DNA from: an uncultured Verrucomicrobiaceae bacterium
GTDB taxonomy: Bacteria > Pseudomonadota > Gammaproteobacteria > Pseudomonadales > CAMLJR01
Assembly: GCA_964638025.1 (NCBI GenBank)
Contig: CAZWXW010000008.1
Location: forward strand, 12,285-76,284
Reading direction: 5' to 3'
Length of the DNA stretch: 64,000 nt
How positions within the stretch are numbered: position 1 is the stretch's first letter; each line of letters begins with the position of its first letter. Position numbers and translations under genes: made by a program. Positions 30,526 through 64,000 of this stretch are shown here, piece by piece. Under the pieces are notes generated by a model, which made no database searches, had not been told where the DNA came from, and saw nothing but the letters and a program-made list of their open reading frames with translations.

Positions 30526-30942
30526 GCTGAGTCATCAATGGGCCAATGAAACCGAACTGCATCGCGAGGAGCCAGGGCTGTGATCAGCAGTCGATCGGCC
30601 TGATCCGGCAATTCGCGGCAATAGGGTACGAACCTGATGATTCAGGGGTGACGGCGAGAGGTAGGGAAGGCGCACGAACCGCAGTTGATACCTTTATGCG
30701 TGCCGCCTATGTGTTACTTCCATCCGTGAATAGACCATCCAGCAAGCCGTTTCGGCAGTTCCGCTGTCGTAGGGCGCGCACCCTCATGGCGTGCGCCCCT
30801 TAGACCGGTGACTTTGCGAACTGAACCTTTCGGTACAGTCAGCCCTGAACAAAACGTGGAACCAAGCCTAGCAGAGCGTTTTTCGATTTCAAGATTTTGA
30901 GAAGCCGGTCACGCGGAGGGTTCATTCATTGGCCTTGGAAAT

Positions 30943-53295: not shown

Positions 53296-53568
53296 TTGAT
53301 AGAATCGCCGCCTGCCATGAACGGTAGTTGTGAGGGGCAAGTGAATCCAGAAGACCTGCAGTTGCTTGTGCAACGCGAGATGCCCTACGGCAAATACAAA
53401 GGCCGGCTAATCGCCGACCTTCCCGGTTCCTACTTGGGTTGGTTTGCGCGGCAGGGATTTCCCACAGGAGAGATCGGTCGACTGCTGGCGCTGATGTATG
53501 AGATCGATCACAACGGCTTGAAGGATCTGCTCAAGCCATTGCGAACGAAACCATCTCAATACATTTGA
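53296..53568 (+). CDS. DUF3820-family protein
   Basis: 'MPYGKYKGRLIADLPGSYLGWFARQGFPTGEIGRLLALMYEI' matches the recalled DUF3820 core. The true start may be internal (MNGS at 53317). Confidence 0.7.
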   Translation: MIESPPAMNGSCEGQVNPEDLQLLVQREMPYGKYKGRLIADLPGSYLGWFARQGFPTGEIGRLLALMYEIDHNGLKDLLKPLRTKPSQYI

Positions 53569-53572
53569 CGCA

Positions 53573-53695
53573 TCAGGCGGGCAGGCAAAGCCCCAGCAAC
53601 ACAAACGATATCCCCATCGACATCACGCCGATATGCCACGGGGTCACGATTCGGGGGGAGGTTTCTGCATGCAGTTCTGCGGTGGAATCAGACAT
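53573..53695 (-). CDS. Small membrane peptide (40 aa) downstream of a LexA-type box
   Basis: MSDSTAELHAETSPRIVTPWHIGVMSMGISFVLLGLCLPA. The C-terminal 21 residues are hydrophobic. GGAG motifs lie upstream of the ATG. The peptide lies inside the listed ORF 53573..53764. Confidence 0.45.
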   Translation of the reverse strand: MSDSTAELHAETSPRIVTPWHIGVMSMGISFVLLGLCLPA

Positions 53696-53704
53696 CTCCA
53701 GTCT

Positions 53705-53742
53705 CCGTACATATACTGTATATAAGACCAGTATATGTACGG
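53705..53742 (-). promoter_or_regulatory. SOS (LexA)-box-like perfect palindrome overlapping a putative promoter
   Basis: CCGTACATATACTG-N10-CAGTATATGTACGG, with perfect 14-bp arms. The core TACTGTATATAAGACCAGTA (53714..53733) matches the gammaproteobacterial consensus TACTG(TA)5CAGTA at 16 of 20 positions. A TGGATA -35-like hexamer lies 17-18 nt upstream of TTATAT on the minus strand. Confidence 0.6.
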
Positions 53743-53760
53743 ATATCCAGAGGCGCCAGC

Positions 53761-54204
53761 TCAATCCGGAATTTCCGGCTCCACCAGGCGTGCCAGGTGT
53801 TCGAGTGACTCCTGCCAGCCCAGATAACAGAACTCCGTTGGAATCTGTTCCGGAATGCCCTCCTGAACAATATTGATTTCGGTGCCACAGGTGACTTCGC
53901 GCAATGTCGCTGTTGTCACCATCTCACCGGGCAGGCCGGGATCGTCGAAGGCGTCGGTGTAGCGAATCCGCTCATTCGGCACCAGCTCCAGATAGGTGCC
54001 GCCGAACGCGTTGCTGTTGCCGGTGGTGAAATTGCGAAAGGCCATGCGGAATTGACCGCCGACGGTGGCATCGAGCTTCTCCACCTTGCAGGTATAGCCA
54101 TTGGGTGGCAGCCAGCGGGCCATGGCCTCGGCATCGGTGAACGCACGGTAGACCTTTTCGGGTTTTGCACGGAGTACGCGGTGCAGGCGGACGGTGCCGG
54201 TCAT
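53761..54204 (-). CDS. SRPBCC-family protein (Aha1/AHSA1-like domain)
   Basis: 'RVLRAKPEKVYRAFTDAEAMARWLPP' and 'GGTYLELVPNERIRYTDAF' fit the AHSA1/SRPBCC pattern. Confidence 0.78.
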   Translation of the reverse strand: MTGTVRLHRVLRAKPEKVYRAFTDAEAMARWLPPNGYTCKVEKLDATVGGQFRMAFRNFTTGNSNAFGGTYLELVPNERIRYTDAFDDPGLPGEMVTTATLREVTCGTEINIVQEGIPEQIPTEFCYLGWQESLEHLARLVEPEIPD

Positions 54205-54306
54205 GATCTTCTCCTTTCAGTGTGTGGTTGATCTGATCTCTAGTCGTATGAGGTTCAGATAAATCGACAAGCCAGTGGAGAAATTCTTGGGGAGCCTCTG
54301 CTCAGC

Positions 54307-55011
54307 TTAAAAACGCTCGCTGGAGGCCAGATAGCGCCATTGCCCCACGGGCAGTTTTCCCATCGGAACGCCGCCGATCCGAATGCGCTTCATCGACACG
54401 ATCTGCAGTCCGACGCGATCGCACATGAGCTTGATCAGGCCGGGGGTGATGCTCTTCAGGGCAAACCGTAACCGGGTTTCGTTCTGCCAGCTGACTTTGC
54501 AAGGAGGCAACGTGGCAGATCCGCGCTTGAGCAGCTCCAGTCCGTTGGCGACCATATCGCCGCTGACTTCAACGATGAACTCCTGTTCGAGGATGGCGGC
54601 ATCGTCGGTGAGCTTCCGTTGTACTTTCCAATCCTGCGTGAATACCACCAGTCCGGCCGCTTCAGGCGGCAGTGGGAAAAGATGGCTGTGGCGAATGAAA
54701 TGTTTTTTGAGCATTCGTACTTCTAAAGGGTCTTCGGCCCACCGGGGCGACGCGCTCAACAGCAATGACAGCGCTTCATCGTTTTCCTCAACGCCAGCCG
54801 GTTGGTGCAACAGCAGGGTCACTGGTTCGATGGCGGAGGCAGAAGCACCGGGCAGCAGTTCGACCTGCTGGTCGAGCACCTTGAACTGCGGCTCTTCCAC
54901 GACGACGCCGTCGACGGTCACCCAGCCCCCCTCGATATAGAGATCGGATTCGCGTCGCGAGCAGCCCACCAGTTCGATCAGGCGTTTGGAGAGGCGGATA
55001 GGTTCAGGCAT
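54307..55011 (-). CDS. RsuA/RluB/RluF-like pseudouridine-synthase homolog lacking the catalytic Asp
   Basis: S4-like N-terminus 'IRLSKRLIELVGCSRRESDLYIEGGWVTVDG'. The core block reads 'LFPLPPEAAGLVVFTQDW' where RsuA has 'AGRLDFNTTGLLLLTNDG'. Start at MPEPIR; an earlier in-frame Met is possible. Confidence 0.65.
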   Translation of the reverse strand: MPEPIRLSKRLIELVGCSRRESDLYIEGGWVTVDGVVVEEPQFKVLDQQVELLPGASASAIEPVTLLLHQPAGVEENDEALSLLLSASPRWAEDPLEVRMLKKHFIRHSHLFPLPPEAAGLVVFTQDWKVQRKLTDDAAILEQEFIVEVSGDMVANGLELLKRGSATLPPCKVSWQNETRLRFALKSITPGLIKLMCDRVGLQIVSMKRIRIGGVPMGKLPVGQWRYLASSERF

Positions 55012-55141
55012 GAGGAGAAGCTCGTGGGTATGGTTGTTGGGCATTGGCGTTGTCATTCCACGCGCAGTCGCGGAATCCATGGTCGGTGCACGTAGCGTGA
55101 TGGATTCTGCGACTTCGCTGCGCTGCGCGCAGAATGACGCA

Positions 55142-55570
55142 CTAAAAAAACAGGCTTGGGCTGATATGAAAACGATCAGACAACGCTTTGATGTGATTCT
55201 TGTTGAGGCTGCGCTCACCGGATAGCACACGAGACACCATCGACTTTGATCCGATTTCCGGAAGATCGGCGGTACCCAGGTTGTGCTGATCCATCAAGAG
55301 TCGAAGCATTGCCACGTCAGATGGCTGAGACATGGAGCGTTGCTCGAAAGCTGTCATCTCAGCATCTTTGTTCTCGTAAGATTCGATCGCGCGGCTCAGC
55401 AACTCAATGACACCGTTGAGCGGATCGTCATGTGAGTCTTGGGCTTCTTCCAGCAAGGATTCGATCAGCTCCAGCGCTTCTTCATAGTGTTGCTCATCGT
55501 TGATATGCAGATAGGGAGCCGCAGCCTGAGCGAAGCTGCGGCAAGCATCCTTAAAAGCGACGGCTGTCAT
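55142..55570 (-). CDS. higA: Type II antitoxin HigA-family (HTH) protein
   Basis: Its ATG overlaps the higB stop (ATGA). C-terminal HTH-like region 'GSKSMVSRVLSGERSLNKNHIKALSDRFHISPSLF'. Confidence 0.8.
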   Translation of the reverse strand: MTAVAFKDACRSFAQAAAPYLHINDEQHYEEALELIESLLEEAQDSHDDPLNGVIELLSRAIESYENKDAEMTAFEQRSMSQPSDVAMLRLLMDQHNLGTADLPEIGSKSMVSRVLSGERSLNKNHIKALSDRFHISPSLFF

Positions 55571-55881
55571 TTCAACTCTCCTCTTGCGTAGCGTTTGCAT
55601 ATTTTGTCGTACTCGGCATGAGTAACGATGTGCTTCACGTATATGCGGTTTTGGACAAACTGGATAAAGACGATCATTCGAAGATTGTTGCCGCCGATAT
55701 CAATGACCCACCATTTGTCCTTGTACTTAAAGTTGTCCAATGAAGGGAAAACCCTTCTCATTTCATCGGGAGAGGCGAACTCTTCCTTTTTGAGTACCTG
55801 ATACAGATCGTCAATCGCCTGTTTCTGATTGGGATAATCCCTGGCCGCCTCATTGAACGGGCGTTTGGATATGACGTGCAT
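55567..55881 (-). CDS. higB: Type II toxin HigB-family mRNA interferase
   Basis: 104 aa. 'MHVISKRPFNEAARDYPN...WVIDIGGNNLRMIVFIQFVQNRIYVKHIVTHAEYDK' matches the recalled HigB_toxin family pattern. AGGAG Shine-Dalgarno. Confidence 0.82.
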   Translation of the reverse strand: MHVISKRPFNEAARDYPNQKQAIDDLYQVLKKEEFASPDEMRRVFPSLDNFKYKDKWWVIDIGGNNLRMIVFIQFVQNRIYVKHIVTHAEYDKICKRYARGELK

Positions 55882-55891
55882 AGCTACTCCT

Positions 55892-55936
55892 GTTGACTAG
55901 GTGTCAACTTTAGTGAGCTGTTGCCATTTGGTCAAC
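55892..55936 (-). promoter_or_regulatory. higBA promoter with two operator palindromes
   Basis: GTTGAC-N5-GTCAAC at 55892..55908 and GTTGCC-N5-GTCAAC at 55920..55936. On the minus strand TTGACC-N17-TAAAGT gives a -35/-10 pair. The distal palindrome overlaps the -35. Confidence 0.6.
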
Positions 55937-56075
55937 TTTGTTGTGTGGCGGAGGGTTTTGGGGGGATTACCTTCTACTGCCTGCTCCTTCCCAATGACAC
56001 CGACTAATCTCAAATTTTGGTTGTGGCGACGACGGCTCGCCTCGTTAAAAAAGTGGAGAGAGGGTGTGATTCACA

Positions 56076-56433
56076 ATGTTCGCTGGTATTGATTTTGGTA
56101 CATCGAATTGCCTGCTAGGGGTGTGGCGAAATGGTAAGGCCGATCTGCTTAAGCTTGAGGGAGACAATTGGATATTCAATTGGCCATGATGAAGCTCATG
56201 CCGCAACTTGGTCGCGGGCGCTGTGAGGTGCCGGCTTGCACCTCGTCACCGAAGTGGAACAACAGGCGGGCACCAAACCTGACTTGGTCTATGTGACTGG
56301 CGGTACCGCGAAGTCGCCCATCGTGCAAAATTTTTTGAATAGTAATCTGGCCGGTTACCCGATCGAGTACGGCAACCTTTTTGGCAGCGTGGGCTCAGGT
56401 CTAACTGCTTGGGCTGGTCAGATATTTCAGTAA
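56076..56433 (+). pseudogene. Hsp70-family (YegD-like) gene with a large internal deletion
   Basis: N-terminal 'MFAGIDFGTSNCLLGVWRNGKADLL' is the phosphate-1 motif; this frame stops after 37 aa. A C-terminal piece 'VYVTGGTAKSPIVQNFL...GSVGSGLTAWAGQIF' follows. About 350 aa of the middle are missing. Confidence 0.7.
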
Positions 56434-56439
56434 GGCCAA

Positions 56440-57207
56440 TTAGACCTGCCAGCCGATGATCATGGTCGGATAGGTGACCCAGAGTGTCCCCTCACGGTCC
56501 TCCGCCTTCAGGCCGAATATGTCCTGCCCTGATGCGGCATCACGCCGCAGGAGGGATCGAACATGGTCGAGCATTCCCGGCGGGGGAAAGGAGGTCGCCA
56601 GAACGGCCTCTAGTGGCAGACTTGTCATGCCGGTCCGTTCCGCAATTTCCGTCAGCCCCTGATTTCGCCCGAGGGTTCGCAATTCCTTCAGCGTCAACGC
56701 GCGTTTGTGCGAAGGATCGCGGATCAGTTCGATCGCGTCGAAAGCCGGCGACCGAGCGCTATCGGGCGACAGGTCCGACACGAAGATACGTCCACCTGGC
56801 GCGCAGGCGCGGTGCATCTCTGCGAGGGTCGCGGCAGGATCAGCGGCGTGATGGAACATGGAGCGGCTGATGACGATGTCGAAGCCGGCATCCTCCACGG
56901 GTAGCGATAGGGAGTCTGCGACTTCCCAGCGAATATTGTTGATCCCGGCAATGGCTGCATGAGCCTTCGCCTGATCGATCATCGCGAGTGTCAGATCGAC
57001 GCCGACCACCTCCTTCACAAACGCCGCAACGGTGACGGCGAACTGCCCCGATCCGCATCCGACATCCAATATCCGGTGGGCCGGCTGAGGCTCCATCAAT
57101 GTGATCAGCGGATCGACACGGGATTGTTGCTGCGAGTTGATGAGCGCGGCATAGGGGGCCGCCTGCCGGGTGAACTGGTCGCGCACACGTTCATTCTGAT
57201 CACTCAT
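56440..57207 (-). CDS. Class I SAM-dependent methyltransferase
   Basis: Start MSDQNER. Motif I 'ILDVGCGSGQF'. Post-I and motif II blocks 'VVGVDLTLAM' and 'FDIVISRSMFHH'. Confidence 0.85.
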   Translation of the reverse strand: MSDQNERVRDQFTRQAAPYAALINSQQQSRVDPLITLMEPQPAHRILDVGCGSGQFAVTVAAFVKEVVGVDLTLAMIDQAKAHAAIAGINNIRWEVADSLSLPVEDAGFDIVISRSMFHHAADPAATLAEMHRACAPGGRIFVSDLSPDSARSPAFDAIELIRDPSHKRALTLKELRTLGRNQGLTEIAERTGMTSLPLEAVLATSFPPPGMLDHVRSLLRRDAASGQDIFGLKAEDREGTLWVTYPTMIIGWQV

Positions 57208-57614
57208 GGCGCCGCCACCTTCATTGCGCCAGCAACCCCAGCCGGACGGAAACTGTGGTCGGCGCGAGCCCGGAAATTGAGAAGGCGGGTCGGCTCCGGT
57301 CCTGTTCGAAAACTGTAGGTGGTGCCTGCTGGGATATAGAGCGATCCTCCCGCCGCCAGCGCCTTGTCGTTCCAATGAAGCGAGCCCTCGGCAACGAAAA
57401 ATATCTCATCCTCGTCATGCGAATGGGGTGCGATCAGCGTGTGCGGGGCGAGGCGCATCTCCATCAGTTGCATGGCACCGTCAGTGCCCGATTCATGGAA
57501 GGAGAGATGGCCTTCGAGTTCTGTAGCGTCGATGTGATCCCGCATCCAGCCCATGGGGATGTCGCCCATCTTTCGCCATGTCAGCTGATCGGGATGATGT
57601 ACACGGATCGTCAT
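57204..57614 (-). CDS. Cupin domain protein
   Basis: 'HSHDEDEIFFVAEGSLHW...GGSLYIPAGTTYSF' gives the two cupin motifs. Its stop overlaps the methyltransferase start (ATGA). Confidence 0.8.
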   Translation of the reverse strand: MTIRVHHPDQLTWRKMGDIPMGWMRDHIDATELEGHLSFHESGTDGAMQLMEMRLAPHTLIAPHSHDEDEIFFVAEGSLHWNDKALAAGGSLYIPAGTTYSFRTGPEPTRLLNFRARADHSFRPAGVAGAMKVAAP

Positions 57615-57712
57615 TACCTGTCCTCCCTTGTTTGGAAGGGCAGGATGTCACTGGGCGCGTTTGACTGTCTCGCGACCATCGGCCAATCTCGCTGCTCAAA
57701 CGGCCATCAGGG

Positions 57713-58534
57713 ATGGAAGCGATGAGCACGCGCCCGATAATCGATCCCGACCGCGACGTGGGCCTTTCCACTCTGATCGATGCTGCCCAGCGCGCACCCG
57801 CAGGTGCCATCGTGCAGGACGAATTCGACATGGACTCGCCCTGGCACCATCACGACATGCACCAGATCCAGTATGCGTTCGAGGGTGCGATGGAGCTGGA
57901 GGATGACCACGGCCGCCATCTGCTGCCACGCAGCCTGGTGGGATGGATTCCGGCGGGTACGCGGCACCGCAACAGCCTGCACCGAATACGCTCCGTCTCT
58001 GTACTGCTGGCTCCGGACAGCGTGCCGAATGCCGGATCAGGGGTGCGCATCCTTCATGCATCGCCTTTGATGCGCGAGATGATTGCTGAAGCGGCGCGCT
58101 GGCCGCTCGACCGGCGAGCCGATGCAACCAGCATCGCTTTTTTCGCAGCCTTTGCCTGTCTTTGTGGTGAATGGATCGAGCACAGGGCACCGCTGACGCT
58201 ACCAACCACCACGGACGCTTCGCTCGGTCGCGCTCTCGCTCATGTTCGCAACGATCCGGCGGGCGCGAAGATGGAGGATGCCACTCGCATCGCCGGCCTG
58301 TCAGACCGGTCGCTGCGCCGCCACTGCCAAGCGTTGATCGGTATGGGATGGGACGAATATCGGCGGCGCGCACGCCTCCTGGCTGCCATCGAACCGCTGA
58401 CAGAGACCGATCACAGCATCGCGCGCATCGCGGCCGATGTTGGATTCGAGAGTCAGAGCGCCTTCGCTCGCGCCTTTCGCCTACTCATCGGGCAGACACC
58501 GCAGGCATTTCGAATGAGCGTGCGACGCGATTGA
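57713..58534 (+). CDS. AraC-family transcriptional regulator (cupin sensor + HTH)
   Basis: N-terminal 'WHHHDMHQIQYAFEG'. C-terminal 'IAADVGFESQSAFARAFRLLIGQTPQAFR'. It is divergent from the cupin-methyltransferase pair. Confidence 0.88.
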   Translation: MEAMSTRPIIDPDRDVGLSTLIDAAQRAPAGAIVQDEFDMDSPWHHHDMHQIQYAFEGAMELEDDHGRHLLPRSLVGWIPAGTRHRNSLHRIRSVSVLLAPDSVPNAGSGVRILHASPLMREMIAEAARWPLDRRADATSIAFFAAFACLCGEWIEHRAPLTLPTTTDASLGRALAHVRNDPAGAKMEDATRIAGLSDRSLRRHCQALIGMGWDEYRRRARLLAAIEPLTETDHSIARIAADVGFESQSAFARAFRLLIGQTPQAFRMSVRRD

Positions 58535-58806
58535 TACGAATCATAAGAAGCGACCCAAAATAGCAGAACAAATGGGTCACCTAGCTAGTAGGCGGTTGCA
58601 TCGTTTCGACCTGATATAACGCCGCCCCTTCTCCCGAGTAGAGCACTATCAATCGGCCGCTGCAGTTCCAGCCGATATAGTCGTAACGAGTGAATAGGAC
58701 TATTCAGTGTGTTTAACTTCAAGGCCCCGCTGCACGCCAAGCTGGGTGTAGCGGCGGAGTGAAATTGGTTTGAAATCCCAGTAGCCAACAGCATCACGGA
58801 GGCAAC

Positions 58807-59229
58807 ATGAAGAAGAAAGCATGGGCAGCGTGGACGGGCAGCATCAAAGAGGGTGGTGGCACAATTTCAACAGAAACGGGTGTTTTAAAAGAAGTCCCCT
58901 ATGGTTTTAAGTCACGGTTTGAGAGTGGGCCTGGCACTAATCCAGAAGAACTCATTGGGGCCGCACATGCAGGCTGTTTTTCGATGGCTTTTGCATTGAT
59001 GCTCGGCAATGCCGGTTTCACTCCGGACAAAATCGAAACGCAGGCGATCGTGACGCTCGAACAAAATTCGGATGGTTTCGCAATAACATCGAGTCACCTA
59101 ACCGTTGTGGCAAAAATTCCGGGAATCGATCAGGAAAAATTCGATGAGATCGTTAATGCTGCGAAGGTCGGTTGCCCGATATCAAAGGTATTAAATGCCA
59201 CGATATCGATGGATGCCATGCTGGTTTGA
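58807..59229 (+). CDS. osmC: OsmC-family peroxiredoxin
   Basis: 'GTNPEELIGAAHAGCFSMAF' and 'AKVGCPISKVL' carry the two conserved Cys motifs. 140 aa. Confidence 0.88.
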   Translation: MKKKAWAAWTGSIKEGGGTISTETGVLKEVPYGFKSRFESGPGTNPEELIGAAHAGCFSMAFALMLGNAGFTPDKIETQAIVTLEQNSDGFAITSSHLTVVAKIPGIDQEKFDEIVNAAKVGCPISKVLNATISMDAMLV

Positions 59230-59340
59230 AGGTGGATTACCGATCGGGATGCCGTCTGGCGTCGGCGTGTCGGGGCTGGAGTACGGCGGCGGCGATCAGT
59301 TCTTCTGCGGCGGGGGCGGAGGCGGAAAACTACGTGTAGT

Positions 59341-59793
59341 GCGCAGGCCGAAACGCGAAGCGATGTTATCGTGACGGCGGATCGGATTGCGGCGCAATGG
59401 ATTGGCAGGCGGTTCAATCAGGTGTGTCACCAAAGCGCCGCAGCATGACTGGACCGCTCCGCCGCCACCCACTCTCGGTCTTTGTAAGCGGCGTATCACG
59501 ACACACTCGGCCCCTATTGGCCTGTCGAGTGCCGCAACGTCAAAACCGGGTATCGACATCTGCCGTTTCCATTCGAGGAAAAGCAGCTTCCGACGCTTGC
59601 AATAGAGGTGTCATGGACGCTGCAGGAGCTCGTCAGTTACATCAGTACTTGGTCCGCTGTGGAGGTGATAGAGCAGGCGTCGGGTGCCGAACCGTTCAAG
59701 TATTTTTTGAAGGCACTGAGTGGCGCGTGGGGTGATAGAGATGTTCGGCGTCAGGCCCGGTGGCCGCTCTCTTCTTTTGTGGAGATTGTTTAG
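59341..59793 (+). pseudogene. Frameshifted remnant of a class I SAM-dependent methyltransferase
   Basis: Three frames carry consecutive family blocks. These are 'AQAETRSDVIVTADRIAAQWIGRRFNQV' (then TGA) and 'HPLSVFVSG'. The third is 'YHDTLGPYWPVECRNVKTGYRHLPFPFEEKQLPTLAIEVSWTLQELVSYISTWSAV...WGDRDVRRQARWPL'. No intact motif I is present. Confidence 0.5.
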
Positions 59794-60629
59794 CTGCGGA
59801 GTTTTAGATTTAGGTGCGGCTGTGCGAGGGGCGCCAATAAATACATAGAAAAAGGAAGGGTTTATCTCCTGGTTTAGACGCGTAGAGGAGATTCCTGCGA
59901 ATTTTGAGGGCCTATCTCGTCACCGCAAGTTCTAATTCCTTGGCGAGGGTTAGCAGTTTGTGCCCGTCGTGAATCTTCATGTCGTTGCCATAAAAGAAGA
60001 AGCTCAACTTTGGGGAGTAGATCTGTCGATGACAGTGGGAAATAACGATCGAGTTCATGGCGGAAACGTGCTCCATGCTTGCTTCAAGAACGCCACTCTT
60101 CGCACCGAATTCCCCTATTAGTGCGAGCGAGCTACTTAGGGGGAAATATACTCTCGTACCCTTAAGGCCAAATCCCGGGCTTTTTTGAAGTAGTGCTGGA
60201 ATTTTGCTTGGCTCTCTCCAGCTCAGTGAAGCAGGGTGGTCCGAAGTGATAAAGGGGCCATTCGATGCGTCAGTTTTGATTAGAAGCCAATCTCTACTTT
60301 GTAGGAAGGGGAGGATTTCTGAGATTAGATGGGCTTCTGACTGGATTATTTCAAAATTCGACAGCTCGTTCGGAAGGCTGTTGGTTGTATAAAATTCTTT
60401 GACTTGCTCAAAGGTGATGGATTCTGGGAATTCGATTCCTCTTTCTTTCATAGAGTCTTTGAGTTCTTCCCAGCACTCCTTCGATTTTAAAGCGCTCAGG
60501 ATCAAATTTTTGGTTGTTTCTTCCCGGAACGCGCCAAGGTGGGCTCGCATTTCTGGGGATCCGACGTCCCCCCCTATTTGAGTAGCGCTAGTGTTTAGAG
60601 TCCAATACCCCTGACCCAGGAGATTGGAC

Positions 60630-60893
60630 GTGAAGAAGCGTTTTACCGAAGAGCAGATCATTGGCTTCCTGCGCGAGGCCGACACCGGGGTGGCGATCAA
60701 GGAGCTGTGCCGCCGGCACGGCTTTTCCGAAGCCAGTTACTACCTGTGGCGCGCCAAGTTCGGCGGCATGGATGTGTCGGATGCCAAGCGGCTAAAGGCA
60801 CTGGAAGCCGAGAATGCGCGCCTGAAAAGGTTGCTGGCCGAGTCGCTGCTGGAGAACGAGATCACGCGCGAAGCGCTCCGAAAAAAGTGGTAG
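60630..60893 (+). CDS. IS3-family transposase OrfA (HTH)
   Basis: '[68 protein letters not shown]'. GTG start with an AGGAG Shine-Dalgarno. Confidence 0.88.
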
Positions 60894-61750
60894 GCGCACA
60901 GCCGCGCCGTGAGTTGGTGCGCCACATGATCGGTTGCGGCATGAGTGAGCGGCGCTCGCTGCGGGTCATTGGCATGAGTGCCAGCGCGCTGTGTTATCAG
61001 CCCGCTCCCGACCGCAACCAGGCTTTACGGCAGCAGATCGTCGCGCTCGCGCACCGGCATCGCCGATACGGCGCCGAGATGATTTATCTGAAGCTGCGCC
61101 AGGATGGTCTGCTGGTGAATCACAAGCGGGTGGAGCGACTGTACGCCGAGGCCGGCCTGCAGGTCAGGCGCCGCAAGCGCAAGAAGATTCCCGCGGCAGA
61201 TCGACAGCCGCTGGGTCGCCCACTGAGCGCCAATCAGGTGTGGTCGATGGACTTTGTGTTTGATCGCACGGCCGACGGGCGCGTCATCAAGTGTCTGACG
61301 ATCGTTGATGACGCCACTCATGAAGCGGTCGCCATCGTGCCGGAGCGCGCCATCGGTGGGGTTTCTTTAACTCGCATCCTTGATCGTCTGGCAGCGGATC
61401 GTGGGCTGCCGAAAGCGATACGCACTGACAATGGTATGGAGTTCTGTGGCAAGGCGATGCTGACATGGGCGCACGAACGCAGCGTGAAGCTGTTTCTGAT
61501 CGAACCTGGCAAGCCGAATCAAAATGCCTACATCGAATCGTTCAATGGCCGCTTCCGCGACGAGTGCCTGAACGAACACTGGTTCACCAGCTTGCCGCAC
61601 GCCAAGGTCGTCATTGAGCGGTGGCGGCGAGAATACAACGAGGAGCGACCGAAGAAAGGATTGGGCGGACTGACCCCGGCGGCTTACGCCAAACAACTGG
61701 CCATCCGATCCGCTACATTAACCGCGGACTCTAAAGCCGAGTGCTACTGA
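60881..61750 (+). CDS. IS3-family transposase OrfB (DDE integrase core), expressed as OrfAB by a -1 frameshift
   Basis: Slippery heptamer A AAA AAG at 60881..60887. The -1 frame continues '[13 protein letters not shown]...'. rve-type core blocks 'WSMDFVFD', 'IRTDNGMEF' and '[20 protein letters not shown]'. Confidence 0.88.
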
Positions 61751-62141
61751 ACACGGGGGGACGTCGGATCTAATCGAGAGCGTCGCGATTAGTGAAAGTA
61801 CGTTTTCTCGATGATCACCTTCGAATTTGTGGGTGCTTTCTATTTCAAGAATCGATTCTGAGACTTTTGATTCGAATTTGCTGAGATTTGTCTCAAGCTG
61901 GTTTGGATCGATATTGGGGATTTCTATTCTATTAAAGTCTCGAATTGCACCGACGTTTCTTGTTGTTGTTTCAAAGTGTTTGTTTGTCTTTAGATCGATA
62001 ACTGATAATTTTGATTTTTTGCTTCTTCCGCGAGTAAATCCCTTTAAGTAGCACTGGGAAAGATAGTGATGGTTTCTCGCGCTCATAGCCATATGATCCT
62101 GAGGTTCAGCCCTGATGCCTTGGGGTTATCGGTTCGTAGAC

Positions 62142-63890
62142 TCATGTGGAGTCTGTACGCAGCTGCCACTGAATTTGGCGGCGTGCGGAAGATATGATGT
62201 CGTTGAATAACACTCCGGATACATTTGGTTCAAGATTTTGGTTTGGGAAGTTTGGAGAGCGCTTGCCGCTGATCAGTAATACTTTTATTGGTTTGCTGAC
62301 GTGTTTAAGAAAATCATGCCGGTATCCAGTGGCTTGTTGGTAGTCTTTTAGGTTAAGTGGGTGTGAGGGTCTCTTGAATTCGATCAGAAGATACTCGCCG
62401 TTGAGGTTTTCATTGAGCAATAGATCGGGGCGCTTGGTTGCTTGCTTTCCTTGATACTTCTTGGCGAGATAATCCTCGACCTGTCTTTGCAGTGTCTGAT
62501 TTGAGCTGAAGAGTGAATATTCCGGGCCGAGAGTCCAGAGGTTTCGCTCCATAGCCTTATGCATGGTCACCTCAAGCGTTTCGTCGGTTTTAGCTAATAG
62601 AGCCAACTGATCTAGAAATTCTGAGCGAGCTCTGGCTTGTTCGACTAGGAAAGCCATGTCCGCCAAGCCAAAATCATTGAGGGAGTCCGCAATGGAGGCG
62701 ATATCGCGACGCTTTGCTTCTGCGAGGTGTTCAACGACTGATCGATAGTCGGAGCGTTCCAGCGCCTCTAGTACCACGAAAACGATGGGTTCGATTTTGT
62801 TGGCGGGCTCGTCATAATACTTTTCAAGAATCTTCTTGATCGCTCGGTCCGCATATTCGCGTTTGAATTCGGGCATCGCCGCCAAACGCTCATGGACTGC
62901 CTTTTGTAGGCGTGCATGAGCTAGCCGCATTTCCTGGCCGTGAGTTTCAGTGAACGCAGTGCGCAGCTTGTCTTGAACATACTGCGAGACATTCTGGTAT
63001 TGCTCGCTGTTTTCCACTACCGAGTCCCAGCCAGCTGTGACGAACTCGCTCAAGCCATTGGCTTCAATCTCTCCGTACATTTTTCTTAGAAGCTTTGGCG
63101 GGAAGCTGTCACATTGGTCTAAGCCAAAGAAGCTGGGTTTTCCTACGGCCTTTCCATCGACCATTAAGGTTATACCTGGCTCGCGGAGGCTGGTCTTTCC
63201 TCGGCTTATAGAGAAGCGCAGATTAATTTCGCCTGTGTTTGGCAAGGAAGTGGTTTCCTCTGTATATGTTCCGTCTAAATCATCAATGGCTAAAGGTTTT
63301 TCATCGATAACAATGTTGAAATCCTTTTGGCGTCCGTATTCCTGAATTAGGATTTGACGAAGACGATTGCTGTCGGGGTAAATGAGTCCTTGATGCAAGC
63401 TGGACAGGATAATCTTTGTGCCGTGCAGCTTCGGAGCGCAAGGCTTGATTGTTGGAGTAATCGGCAGGCGTTCTATGTCGGTAACCTTTTCCAGCTGAGC
63501 AAGGCTTAAAGTGAAGCTGACCTCAGTGCCGCGTGTTCTAGTCGTTAGTGTCATGACTGACGCCGCCATAAAGCCGGAAAACTTCCCAACTCCCTTGCGC
63601 CCTTTGATAGTGCGATGCTTGCTTGGCGTGCGCTCTCCACGTTTGGTTCGACGGTCAGATGCAATTTTCAGGTAATGAGCGTTGAGCTCCTGAGCTGTCA
63701 TGCCTGTGCCATCGTCTTCAATTACGATTGGCTCATCACTCATTGGCGGAGGTAGGGTGATTGATACCTGTTGTGCGTCTGCGTCCCAAGCGTTATCGAT
63801 TAGCTCCTTGAGAGCTTTCTCCGTTGAGGAGTACTCCTGGCTAAGTAGAGTGGCTATTCGAGAGTCGACTTTGAAACGCAGGTTCTTCAT
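62142..63890 (-). CDS. GHKL (HSP90/MutL/MORC-like) ATPase fused to a PD-(D/E)xK, Shedu/DUF4263-like nuclease domain
   Basis: 582 aa. N-box 'KELIDNAWDADA', G1 'IEDDGTGMT' and G2 'GRKGVGKFSGF'. C-terminal 'NLWTLGPEYSLFSS...KRPDLLLNENLNGEYLLIEFKRPSHPL' supplies the D...E-x-K motif. AT-rich. It ends 49 bp upstream of, and runs co-directionally with, the DUF4238 gene. Confidence 0.8.
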   Translation of the reverse strand: MKNLRFKVDSRIATLLSQEYSSTEKALKELIDNAWDADAQQVSITLPPPMSDEPIVIEDDGTGMTAQELNAHYLKIASDRRTKRGERTPSKHRTIKGRKGVGKFSGFMAASVMTLTTRTRGTEVSFTLSLAQLEKVTDIERLPITPTIKPCAPKLHGTKIILSSLHQGLIYPDSNRLRQILIQEYGRQKDFNIVIDEKPLAIDDLDGTYTEETTSLPNTGEINLRFSISRGKTSLREPGITLMVDGKAVGKPSFFGLDQCDSFPPKLLRKMYGEIEANGLSEFVTAGWDSVVENSEQYQNVSQYVQDKLRTAFTETHGQEMRLAHARLQKAVHERLAAMPEFKREYADRAIKKILEKYYDEPANKIEPIVFVVLEALERSDYRSVVEHLAEAKRRDIASIADSLNDFGLADMAFLVEQARARSEFLDQLALLAKTDETLEVTMHKAMERNLWTLGPEYSLFSSNQTLQRQVEDYLAKKYQGKQATKRPDLLLNENLNGEYLLIEFKRPSHPLNLKDYQQATGYRHDFLKHVSKPIKVLLISGKRSPNFPNQNLEPNVSGVLFNDIISSARRQIQWQLRTDST

Positions 63891-64000
63891 TGCGCTATTT
63901 CATCCTTGCTAGGTTGCTTCGCTGTCCAGTTTCTTCTTTTTGCTTAGTAAAGGGTGTTTTTCGTCATTTCCTGCCATAAAATCTTTCGATTAAGTTTTTT

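Follow-up and report, generated by a model that had tools for sequence, protein, structure and literature searches.

A candidate family of LexA-repressed small membrane proteins, predicted from a compact SOS module in the DNA of an uncultured bacterium

What does a strong LexA-type operator control when it stands in front of a 40-codon open reading frame (ORF) that carries no annotation? The question is raised by a locus in a stretch of DNA from an uncultured bacterium (64,000 nucleotides, or 64 kb, of contig CAZWXW010000008.1; hereafter the window, by which the whole stretch is meant), for which a preliminary description had proposed a LexA box within an inverted repeat and, beside it, an SOS-induced gene resembling a type I toxin. 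Our analysis makes it likely that about 200 bp of the minus strand (~53759-53573) form a compact SOS module, comprising a sigma-70 promoter, a LexA operator, a Shine-Dalgarno sequence and a 40-codon gene, the predicted product of which would be a directly induced small membrane effector. Together with the relatives described below, the peptide is best read as representing a new, putative family of directly LexA-repressed small membrane proteins.

The inverted repeat (53704-53718 / 53729-53743) is indeed perfect, as originally described, but its 100% complementary arms are 15 nt long, one nucleotide longer each than the 14 bp given at first, and enclose a loop of 10 nt. The 20-mer at its centre, TACTGTATATAAGACCAGTA, was scored with a symmetrised LexA matrix derived from ~30 operators of Escherichia coli known from the literature, a motif that may not be that of the host. 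It reached 25.8 bits, against a median of 21.7 bits for the training sites and 10.1 bits for the runner-up site in the window; when the window was dinucleotide-shuffled 100 times, the best score averaged 10.7 bits and never exceeded 20.5 bits. The 20-mer agrees with the E. coli-type consensus TACTGTATATATATACAGTA (PMC8072944) at 16 of 20 positions, one half-site reading CTGG instead of the CTGT of the CTGT-N8-ACAG motif (PMC8072944, PMC8565304). It occurs in a single copy in the window even when three mismatches are allowed, no match to it was obtained in dinucleotide shuffles, and the matrix scan returned no second LexA-like site in the window. Both the agreement with the consensus and the matrix scoring, a check that had been suggested from the outset and was run here with the E. 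coli-based matrix, support the initial assignment of the core to the gammaproteobacterial SOS box.

Relatives of the peptide were sought by word-indexed searches of 5.8 billion protein clusters, with progressively widened alignments, and by an exhaustive HMMER search of 1.84 billion cluster representatives. Nine other distinct relatives of 40-47 residues (after trimming of over-extended gene calls) were recovered, which makes ten loci with the window; all relatives are unannotated and come from metagenome assemblies or metagenome-assembled genomes (MAGs). Across the ten sequences, 25, 15 and 36 of 40 sites vary at codon positions 1, 2 and 3, respectively, and the pairwise ratio of non-synonymous to synonymous substitutions (dN/dS) ranges from 0.10 to 0.46 where dS is unsaturated; for instance, the window copy and the relative L002 are separated by 8.5 synonymous and 5.5 non-synonymous differences (dN/dS 0.19). 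The three indels of the family, of 3, 12 and 21 nt, are each in frame, and the peptide frame is the sole one of six that is open in all ten loci. Taken together, the dN/dS values, the in-frame indels and the uniquely open frame argue that the 40-codon ORF is a protein-coding gene under purifying selection. Two other frames at the locus were rejected. The extension that a TTG start at 53764 would give (a 63-aa ORF) is translated operator, and other loci have unrelated sequence upstream; the antisense 103-aa ORF at 53565-53876 has its third codon positions in common with the peptide frame, and the matching antisense frames carry stop codons in other loci. A 462-aa repeat protein (P0007) returned by the search of cluster representatives matched only the acidic N-terminal motif and was disregarded.

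The family appears to be sparsely distributed. A peptide-profile scan of 185,579 species-representative genomes returned only L005, which is identical to L001, and no match was found among JGI metagenome contigs with peptide patterns and a degenerate codon pattern. Neither a scan of viral contigs for the peptide family nor a tblastn search of 72,556 plasmids with two family members gave any match, so the unit is not visibly phage- or plasmid-borne. The flanks, compared with plasmids by blastn, yielded only 68-78% matches to scattered alpha- and betaproteobacteria, and the AHSA1 protein encoded upstream had no exact counterpart on look-up. L005 (CAYLRA010000022.1) belongs to a MAG labelled 'uncultured Verrucomicrobiaceae', yet has an E. 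coli-type CTGT-N8-ACAG box.

Operator and gene are linked by their joint conservation. A CTGT-N8-ACAG-type box scoring 19.8-27.2 bits on the E. coli matrix is present in nine of the ten loci, with its 20-mer ending 17-18 nt before the start codon, and this spacing is kept although the intervening 18 bases differ and synonymous sites are saturated between subgroups. In the search for conservation of the box-plus-ORF unit that had been proposed for this locus, nine of ten distinct loci were found to retain the unit at identical spacing despite saturated synonymous divergence. The tenth locus, L011, is without a box; its homology to the window ends exactly at the right-hand edge of the box, and its peptide gene lies 29 nt 3' of a co-directional gene of the YebG family (PF07130, 30.3 bits; cut-off 27.5). 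In enterobacteria yebG is LexA-regulated, the Salmonella box lying 17 bp from the ATG (PMC8072944), and in Pseudomonas aeruginosa the PA3413-PA3414 pair, which contains a yebG homologue, is induced together with lexA, recA and recN (PMC1250226). With nine loci boxed and the tenth placed behind yebG, every known member of the family appears to be wired to the SOS system.

The genes that surround the module differ among the loci. In the window it stands alone, with an AHSA1/SRPBCC-family gene on one side and a convergent DUF3820 gene on the other; L006, from a sister sample, is identical to the window sequence. A second stand-alone copy, in L001 (= L005), is flanked by PAP2 (divergent) and GSDH-like (convergent) genes. 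In L002 and L004, polB, encoding DNA polymerase II (NCBIfam, 1207 bits in L002), starts 35 nt past the peptide stop codon, and in L003 polB is placed downstream by homology of the intergenic region and of the first codons. No box lies between the peptide gene and polB in the polB-linked loci, so that polB would be read from the LexA-controlled promoter of the peptide. In L007-L010, umuD is divergent from the peptide gene and a single box lies 44-46 nt from the umuD start; the umuD gene of L008 is short and classical (124 aa) and is followed by umuC in this contig, the only umuD-linked one long enough to show it. No polB was detected in the window by tblastn. Accordingly, the earlier view that the box could regulate no other gene holds for the window, with neither polB nor a second site, but not for the family, in which polB and umuDC are linked to it. 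We read these arrangements as indicating that the family has repeatedly travelled with, and has an operator in common with, the translesion polymerase genes polB and umuDC, with a further link to yebG; the coupling to the polymerases and yebG may be simple operator sharing or may hint at a functional link. A role of the peptide as a polB leader peptide or upstream ORF is not supported, given that polB is downstream in only three of ten loci and missing from the window.

Some features of the polB-linked loci deserve separate mention. In L003, a 24-nt segment with the Shine-Dalgarno sequence and the ATG is repeated in tandem at positions 975-1024 (GGCTAGAGATGCCTGAT... / GAGCTAGAGATGTCTGAT...), which creates two in-frame starts and a possible 48-aa form of the peptide; the box spacing fits the upstream start, and a second, partial LexA half-site is found just 5' of the box. 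At 1052-1068 of L002, and at the equivalent positions of L003 and L004, the peptide stop codon lies within the loop of a GC-rich hairpin of 6-7 bp (CCCGCC-TGA-GGCGGG), with polB following 35 nt on; the hairpin lacks a U-tract, and its fold does not stand out (z = -0.17 and -0.35).

In the window, the operator 20-mer ends 18 nt 5' of the ATG on the minus strand, close to the ~20 nt first estimated, and the ORF runs for 40 codons from 53695 to 53573 as described. In all relatives a purine block (GGAG, GAGG or AGAG) is located 8-13 nt 5' of the ATG. The product likewise conforms to the initial picture of an acidic N-terminus followed by a C-terminal hydrophobic helix. The N-terminal part of the window peptide has a net charge of -2, its last 20 residues carry no charge (mean Kyte-Doolittle hydropathy 1.79; 1.6-1.9 across the family), and AlphaFold2, run with a nine-sequence alignment, predicts a helix over residues 17-37 (block-mean pLDDT 84-88 over residues 21-40) in addition to a short, low-confidence helix over residues 4-11. 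The N-terminal part is net negative in nine of the ten members and neutral in L011, and one basic residue lies right before the helix. Since the peptide ends only 2-3 residues past the predicted helix, it would be tail-anchored; the single Arg/Lys before the helix suggests a cytoplasmic N-terminus, with membrane insertion presumably post-translational. Conservation is lowest in the N-terminal tail, and the invariant positions are M1, T5, I16, V17, W20, I22, G23, G28, L33, L34, G35, L38 and P39. Within the helix, S26 and S30 are near the invariant G23, G28 and G35, and this periodicity of small residues, together with the invariant W20 and L38-P39, suggests a specific helix-helix contact with a partner or with the peptide itself. 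A lipoprotein signal was considered and rejected, the Cys not being conserved and the residue before it being Leu or Phe. Searched against Pfam and NCBIfam with E up to 0.1, the window peptide gave no hit, nine family members gave nothing usable against PHROGs, PADLOC and PDB, and no named relative was returned by the searches of family libraries and protein databases, in agreement with the earlier view that the peptide lies outside the described families.

The position of the promoter is less clear-cut. The pair TGGATA/TTATAT proposed originally (promoter B in Table 1) is present and overlaps the box, its -10 being inside the operator, but TGGATA is kept only in the window and three of four close relatives, L003 having TGTATA instead. 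A second pair (promoter A), the -10 of which overlaps one operator arm, is conserved in more relatives: a hexamer scan located pairs of this type in eight of the nine box-bearing loci, with the -35 at -64/-63 (CTGGCG, CTGGCA, TTGCGC or GTGACA), a spacer of 17-18 nt and the -10 at -40/-39 (TATACT, or TATGCT in L009). From promoter A, transcription would start near the centre of the box and give a leader of ~28 nt. Whichever pair is used, LexA on its operator would keep RNA polymerase off. A sigma-54 promoter at CTGGCA was considered and rejected, the -12 element being missing.

On the opposite strand, the sequence T[AC]GACA-17-TATACT scores 10/12 in all four umuDC-linked loci (L007-L010) and is very probably the umuD promoter there; the weaker antisense site of the window (Table 1) is probably a decayed copy of this divergent promoter. 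In L007-L010 (e.g., L008 2706-2749), the -35 of the umuD promoter overlaps the ATG-TCN codons of the peptide gene and the two predicted transcription starts meet in the middle of the single LexA box, an arrangement in which two polymerases would compete for one 70-bp region.

DNA damage leads to RecA-stimulated cleavage of LexA, which frees LexA-repressed promoters. The position and strength of the site described here suggest that, in the undamaged cell, a LexA dimer on the operator would block RNA polymerase, and that LexA cleavage upon damage would free the promoter of the peptide. The resulting mRNA, with a short leader of at most ~30 nt as judged from the predicted start, would be unstructured and translated directly, yielding a peptide with an acidic, probably cytoplasmic N-terminal tail of ~16 residues and a predicted C-terminal transmembrane helix. 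Candidates for its target are the divisome, the energetics of the membrane, and translesion polymerases that are held there. An additional layer of control may exist in the window. The palindrome arms are only ~10 nt long in the relatives, the extra length being specific to the window copy, and when folded as RNA the full palindrome yields -29.3 kcal/mol (z = -6.75), with an outer stem that pairs with CUGGAG just 5' of the ATG. Because transcripts initiated within the box would not contain the 5' arm, this hairpin could silence the peptide only in read-through from the AHSA1 gene, where it could mask the ribosome-binding region and leave translation to the LexA-controlled start only.

The first alternative is the one put forward initially, namely, a type I toxin comparable to tisB/istR-1 or dinQ/agrB, that is, an SOS-induced depolarising peptide silenced by an antisense small RNA (sRNA). 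A small hydrophobic peptide with a LexA-type box is also what TisB and DinQ look like (PMC3567139, PMC2577331, PMC11997105); as in these systems, an SOS box precedes a tiny hydrophobic peptide, here predicted to be in the inner membrane, that annotation overlooked. Moreover, the peptide belongs to no known family, and its occurrence in several unrelated genomic contexts is often seen with mobile toxin-antitoxin cassettes. The architecture of the locus, however, differs from that of the known pairs. In tisB/istR-1 and dinQ/agrB, the long primary transcript stays translationally inert until processed, the initiation region is structured and the antisense sRNA has its own promoter (PMC3567139); the dinQ transcript is ~330 nt long and active only once processed at +44 (PMC3567139), and the tisB box of Salmonella lies 236 bp from the ATG (PMC8072944). 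Here, the box ends 18 nt from the ATG, and hence the leader is at most ~30 nt long, with an exposed Shine-Dalgarno sequence and no room for a standby site or 5' processing. The mRNA folds at -44.7 kcal/mol versus a shuffle mean of -48.3 (z = +0.88), and the consensus structure of eight relatives is weak (-9.3 kcal/mol). Of the sRNA antitoxin, the long processed leader and the structured mRNA that mark tisB and dinQ, none was found at the locus.

The look for an antisense or overlapping sRNA that had been recommended at the outset, confined to the locus itself, was equally unfavourable to the type I label. No conserved antisense promoter reads into the ORF; the only recurrent one fires away from it, with a start at about the same point as the sense start. 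Sequence beyond the ~200-bp module is unrelated between contexts, which leaves no conserved neighbouring sRNA gene, and Rfam returned no known RNA at the peptide locus, only spurious microRNA-like matches on the palindrome. The peptide itself, with a polar N-terminus and, behind this acidic tail, a helix at the very C-terminal end, has its parts in the opposite order to most type I toxins and differs in this respect from TisB and DinQ. We therefore regard a type I toxin as unlikely; its architecture is not supported here, while a membrane-active effect of the peptide is still conceivable.

A closer parallel in build is SidA of Caulobacter crescentus, an SOS-induced inner-membrane protein of 29 aa that blocks division via FtsW/FtsI/FtsN (PMC4211646). 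Like SidA, the peptide is predicted to be LexA-controlled and single-pass, has a few dozen residues (<50), and is accompanied by no dedicated antitoxin RNA that we could find; SidA acts by intramembrane protein contact, and the invariant small-residue face of the helix suggests a comparable mode. The peptide differs from SidA in the E. coli type of its LexA motif and in the proximity of its relatives to polB, umuDC and yebG, no such linkage having been reported for sidA. In build only, then, the peptide would resemble SidA more than TisB or DinQ. The classical SOS genes offer a parallel in promoter layout: sulA, yebG, dinI and umuDC have one strong operator 15-21 bp from the start and overlapping the promoter (box-to-ATG distances in Salmonella: sulA 21, yebG 17, umuD 15 and dinI 19 bp; PMC8072944), compared with 18 here, but their products are soluble and of known families, in contrast to the 40-aa predicted membrane peptide. 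Finally, in the ddrR-umuDAb pair of Acinetobacter a small gene is divergent from a umuD homologue, with the operator in common (PMC7273328, PMC11332147), just as the peptide gene and umuD diverge from one operator in L007-L010. That system is LexA-independent, with an atypical, larger operator bound by UmuDAb and DdrR, the latter being a co-repressor, whereas the umuD genes of the relatives are short and classical and the window has no umuD.

The genomic contexts raise a second alternative, in which the peptide is an accessory factor of the translesion polymerases, for example by tethering UmuC, Pol V or Pol II to the membrane or by releasing them from it. We know of no membrane receptor that has been named for UmuC in E. 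coli. Translesion polymerase genes adjoin the peptide gene in seven of the ten loci (polB downstream in three, umuDC divergent in four), an eighth lies 3' of yebG, and an acidic cytoplasmic tail on a membrane anchor, as the predicted topology has it, would suit a tether. UmuC of E. coli is sequestered at the inner membrane for as long as UmuD' has not formed (PMC4552617, PMC6375631). Operator sharing is, however, an economical cause of SOS gene clustering that calls for no functional link; the copies of the window and L001 are intact with no polymerase gene nearby, the seven linked loci amount to only ~five independent contexts, and the N-terminal tail, which would do the tethering, is the least conserved part of the peptide and was modelled at low confidence. 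We regard such an accessory role as unlikely, and equally so the bolder reading that the family is an unrecognised membrane component of the translesion branch of the SOS response, a LexA-induced, tail-anchored peptide holding UmuC/Pol V and perhaps Pol II or YebG at the inner membrane or releasing them. If true, the bolder reading would provide the membrane partner that has been lacking in the spatial control described for mutagenic polymerases in E. coli.

A third alternative, which we rate as very improbable, holds that the module is a stranded remnant of a polB or umuDC promoter region after rearrangement, with the box and the ORF inert in the window. The polymerase gene of the relatives is indeed missing there, the antisense promoter has fallen from 10/12 in the umuDC-linked loci to 9/12, and the setting is prone to rearrangement, with G+C starting to drop at the module, from ~0.62 to 0.48-0.56, beside toxin-antitoxin and insertion-sequence genes. 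Against decay, the ORF, the Shine-Dalgarno sequence, the spacing and the 25.8-bit operator are all intact in the window, the operator palindrome is longer and more perfect than in any relative, the copy differs from its relatives mainly at synonymous sites, as in the comparison with L002 given above, and the second, independent stand-alone copy (L001) is intact as well. Furthermore, L011 keeps the adjacency of the peptide and DUF3820 genes under a different SOS promoter arrangement, a sign that SOS control of the peptide itself has been selected for. The notion that the palindrome is not a LexA site but a terminator or RNA hairpin of the AHSA1 gene, a repeat element or the operator of another regulator can be set aside almost entirely: the hairpin is very stable as RNA and begins 17 nt past the AHSA1 stop codon, but no U-tract follows it and the terminator scan makes no call, the element is present in a single copy in the window and thus is no dispersed repeat, the part conserved across contexts is the LexA core CTGT-N8-ACAG with its TA flanks rather than the outer arms, and the palindrome accompanies the peptide gene and classical SOS genes rather than AHSA1.

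A directly LexA-repressed membrane effector remains the reading that we prefer, and several points weigh against it. The LexA matrix was built from E. coli operators, the lexA gene of the host is not within the window, and it is only the conservation of the motif at these loci that suggests a host LexA reading an E. coli-type motif. The label of L005 is uncertain, and its combination with this type of box may reflect mis-binning, a wrong label or a wider taxonomic range of the motif than assumed. The family is very rare, comprising ten sequences, with several contigs shorter than 1.5 kb, and the counts of contexts rest on few independent lineages, with L002 and L004 representing one context and L008 and L010 another. 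The transcription start is ambiguous between the two candidate hexamer pairs, and the computed results do not discriminate between the candidate targets of the peptide.

The LexA-controlled membrane mini-proteins TisB, DinQ and SidA tie DNA damage to persistence, membrane energetics and division, and each of the known ones was, to our knowledge, found by chance in a model organism. The present analysis would add a further family, one that comparative genomics by itself backs with unusual clarity through fixed operator spacing, purifying selection and repeated recruitment beside polB, umuDC and yebG, and the absence of this family from all annotation resources searched suggests that the SOS regulons of uncultured bacteria still hide small effectors. 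Given the operator shared with error-prone polymerases, a role of the peptide in mutagenesis or in where these polymerases localise is conceivable, as is an arrest of division or growth while they are active. The rarity of the family limits its practical weight.

Table 1. Coordinates of the candidate SOS module and of its immediate neighbours, numbered along the window
Feature	Position	Strand	Basis and details
Extended perfect palindrome around the operator	53704..53743	none	Inverted-repeat search
LexA (SOS) operator, predicted; 20-mer TACTGTATATAAGACCAGTA	53714..53733	none	LexA matrix score; CTG-N10-CAG core at 53716-53731
Candidate sense promoter A	53730..53759	-	-35 CTGGCG (53759-53754), 18-nt spacer, -10 TATACT (53735-53730)
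Candidate sense promoter B (from the preliminary description)	53720..53749	-	-35 TGGATA (53749-53744), 18-nt spacer, -10 TTATAT (53725-53720)
Antisense promoter-like site, CAGACA-17-TATACT	53689..53717	+	9/12 positions; reads away from the ORF
Shine-Dalgarno GGAG	53703..53706	-	7 nt 5' of the ATG
40-aa peptide gene, including stop codon; MSDSTAELHAETSPRIVTPWHIGVMSMGISFVLLGLCLPA	53573..53695	-	ATG at 53695, stop 53575-53573
Conserved C-terminal transmembrane helix, predicted; codons 17-37	53585..53647	-	AlphaFold2, hydropathy
AHSA1/SRPBCC-family gene, upstream neighbour	53761..54204	-	Pfam PF08327, E = 4e-32
DUF3820/QSregVF_b gene, convergent downstream neighbour	53296..53568	+	Pfam PF12843, E = 1e-30

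The module is tightly packed between its neighbours (Table 1). The AHSA1 stop codon is one base from the candidate -35 of promoter A, and no terminator was found between the AHSA1 and peptide genes by the terminator scan. On the other side, the DUF3820 stop codon lies 4 nt from the peptide stop codon, an adjacency that is kept in L011 (381-473, minus strand), where the upstream side differs. The DUF3820 protein has a weak match (E = 8e-6) to the C-terminal part of the DnaQ-like 'DNA polymerase III epsilon' model PRK06310, and its gene could be another neighbour with a function in DNA metabolism.

Over 54000-64000 of the window, G+C is lowered to 0.48-0.59, from ~0.60-0.68 over most of its length, and this stretch carries a toxin-antitoxin pair, an insertion sequence, and methyltransferase, AraC and OsmC genes. 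The drop in G+C from ~54 kb onward and the accessory genes place the SOS module at the edge of an apparent accessory or island region. At 55142-55881 (minus strand), ~1.4 kb from the module, a HigB-family toxin gene (55567-55881; PF09907, E = 2e-27) overlaps a 152-aa ORF (55142-55600) with a weak C-terminal HTH_3 match, which together look like a HigBA-type toxin-antitoxin pair. Farther along, in the region 59912-62092, an IS3-family transposase gene (60707-61750, plus strand; rve, HTH_21) lies between the halves of a DUF4238 gene on the minus strand (61718-62092, profile positions 1-107, and 59912-60700, profile positions 155-277), and it looks as though the IS3 insertion split this gene. No tRNA gene was found in the window, and its only Rfam match is a c-di-GMP-I riboswitch aptamer at 30751-30854 on the minus strand (52.3 bits versus a gathering threshold of 35).

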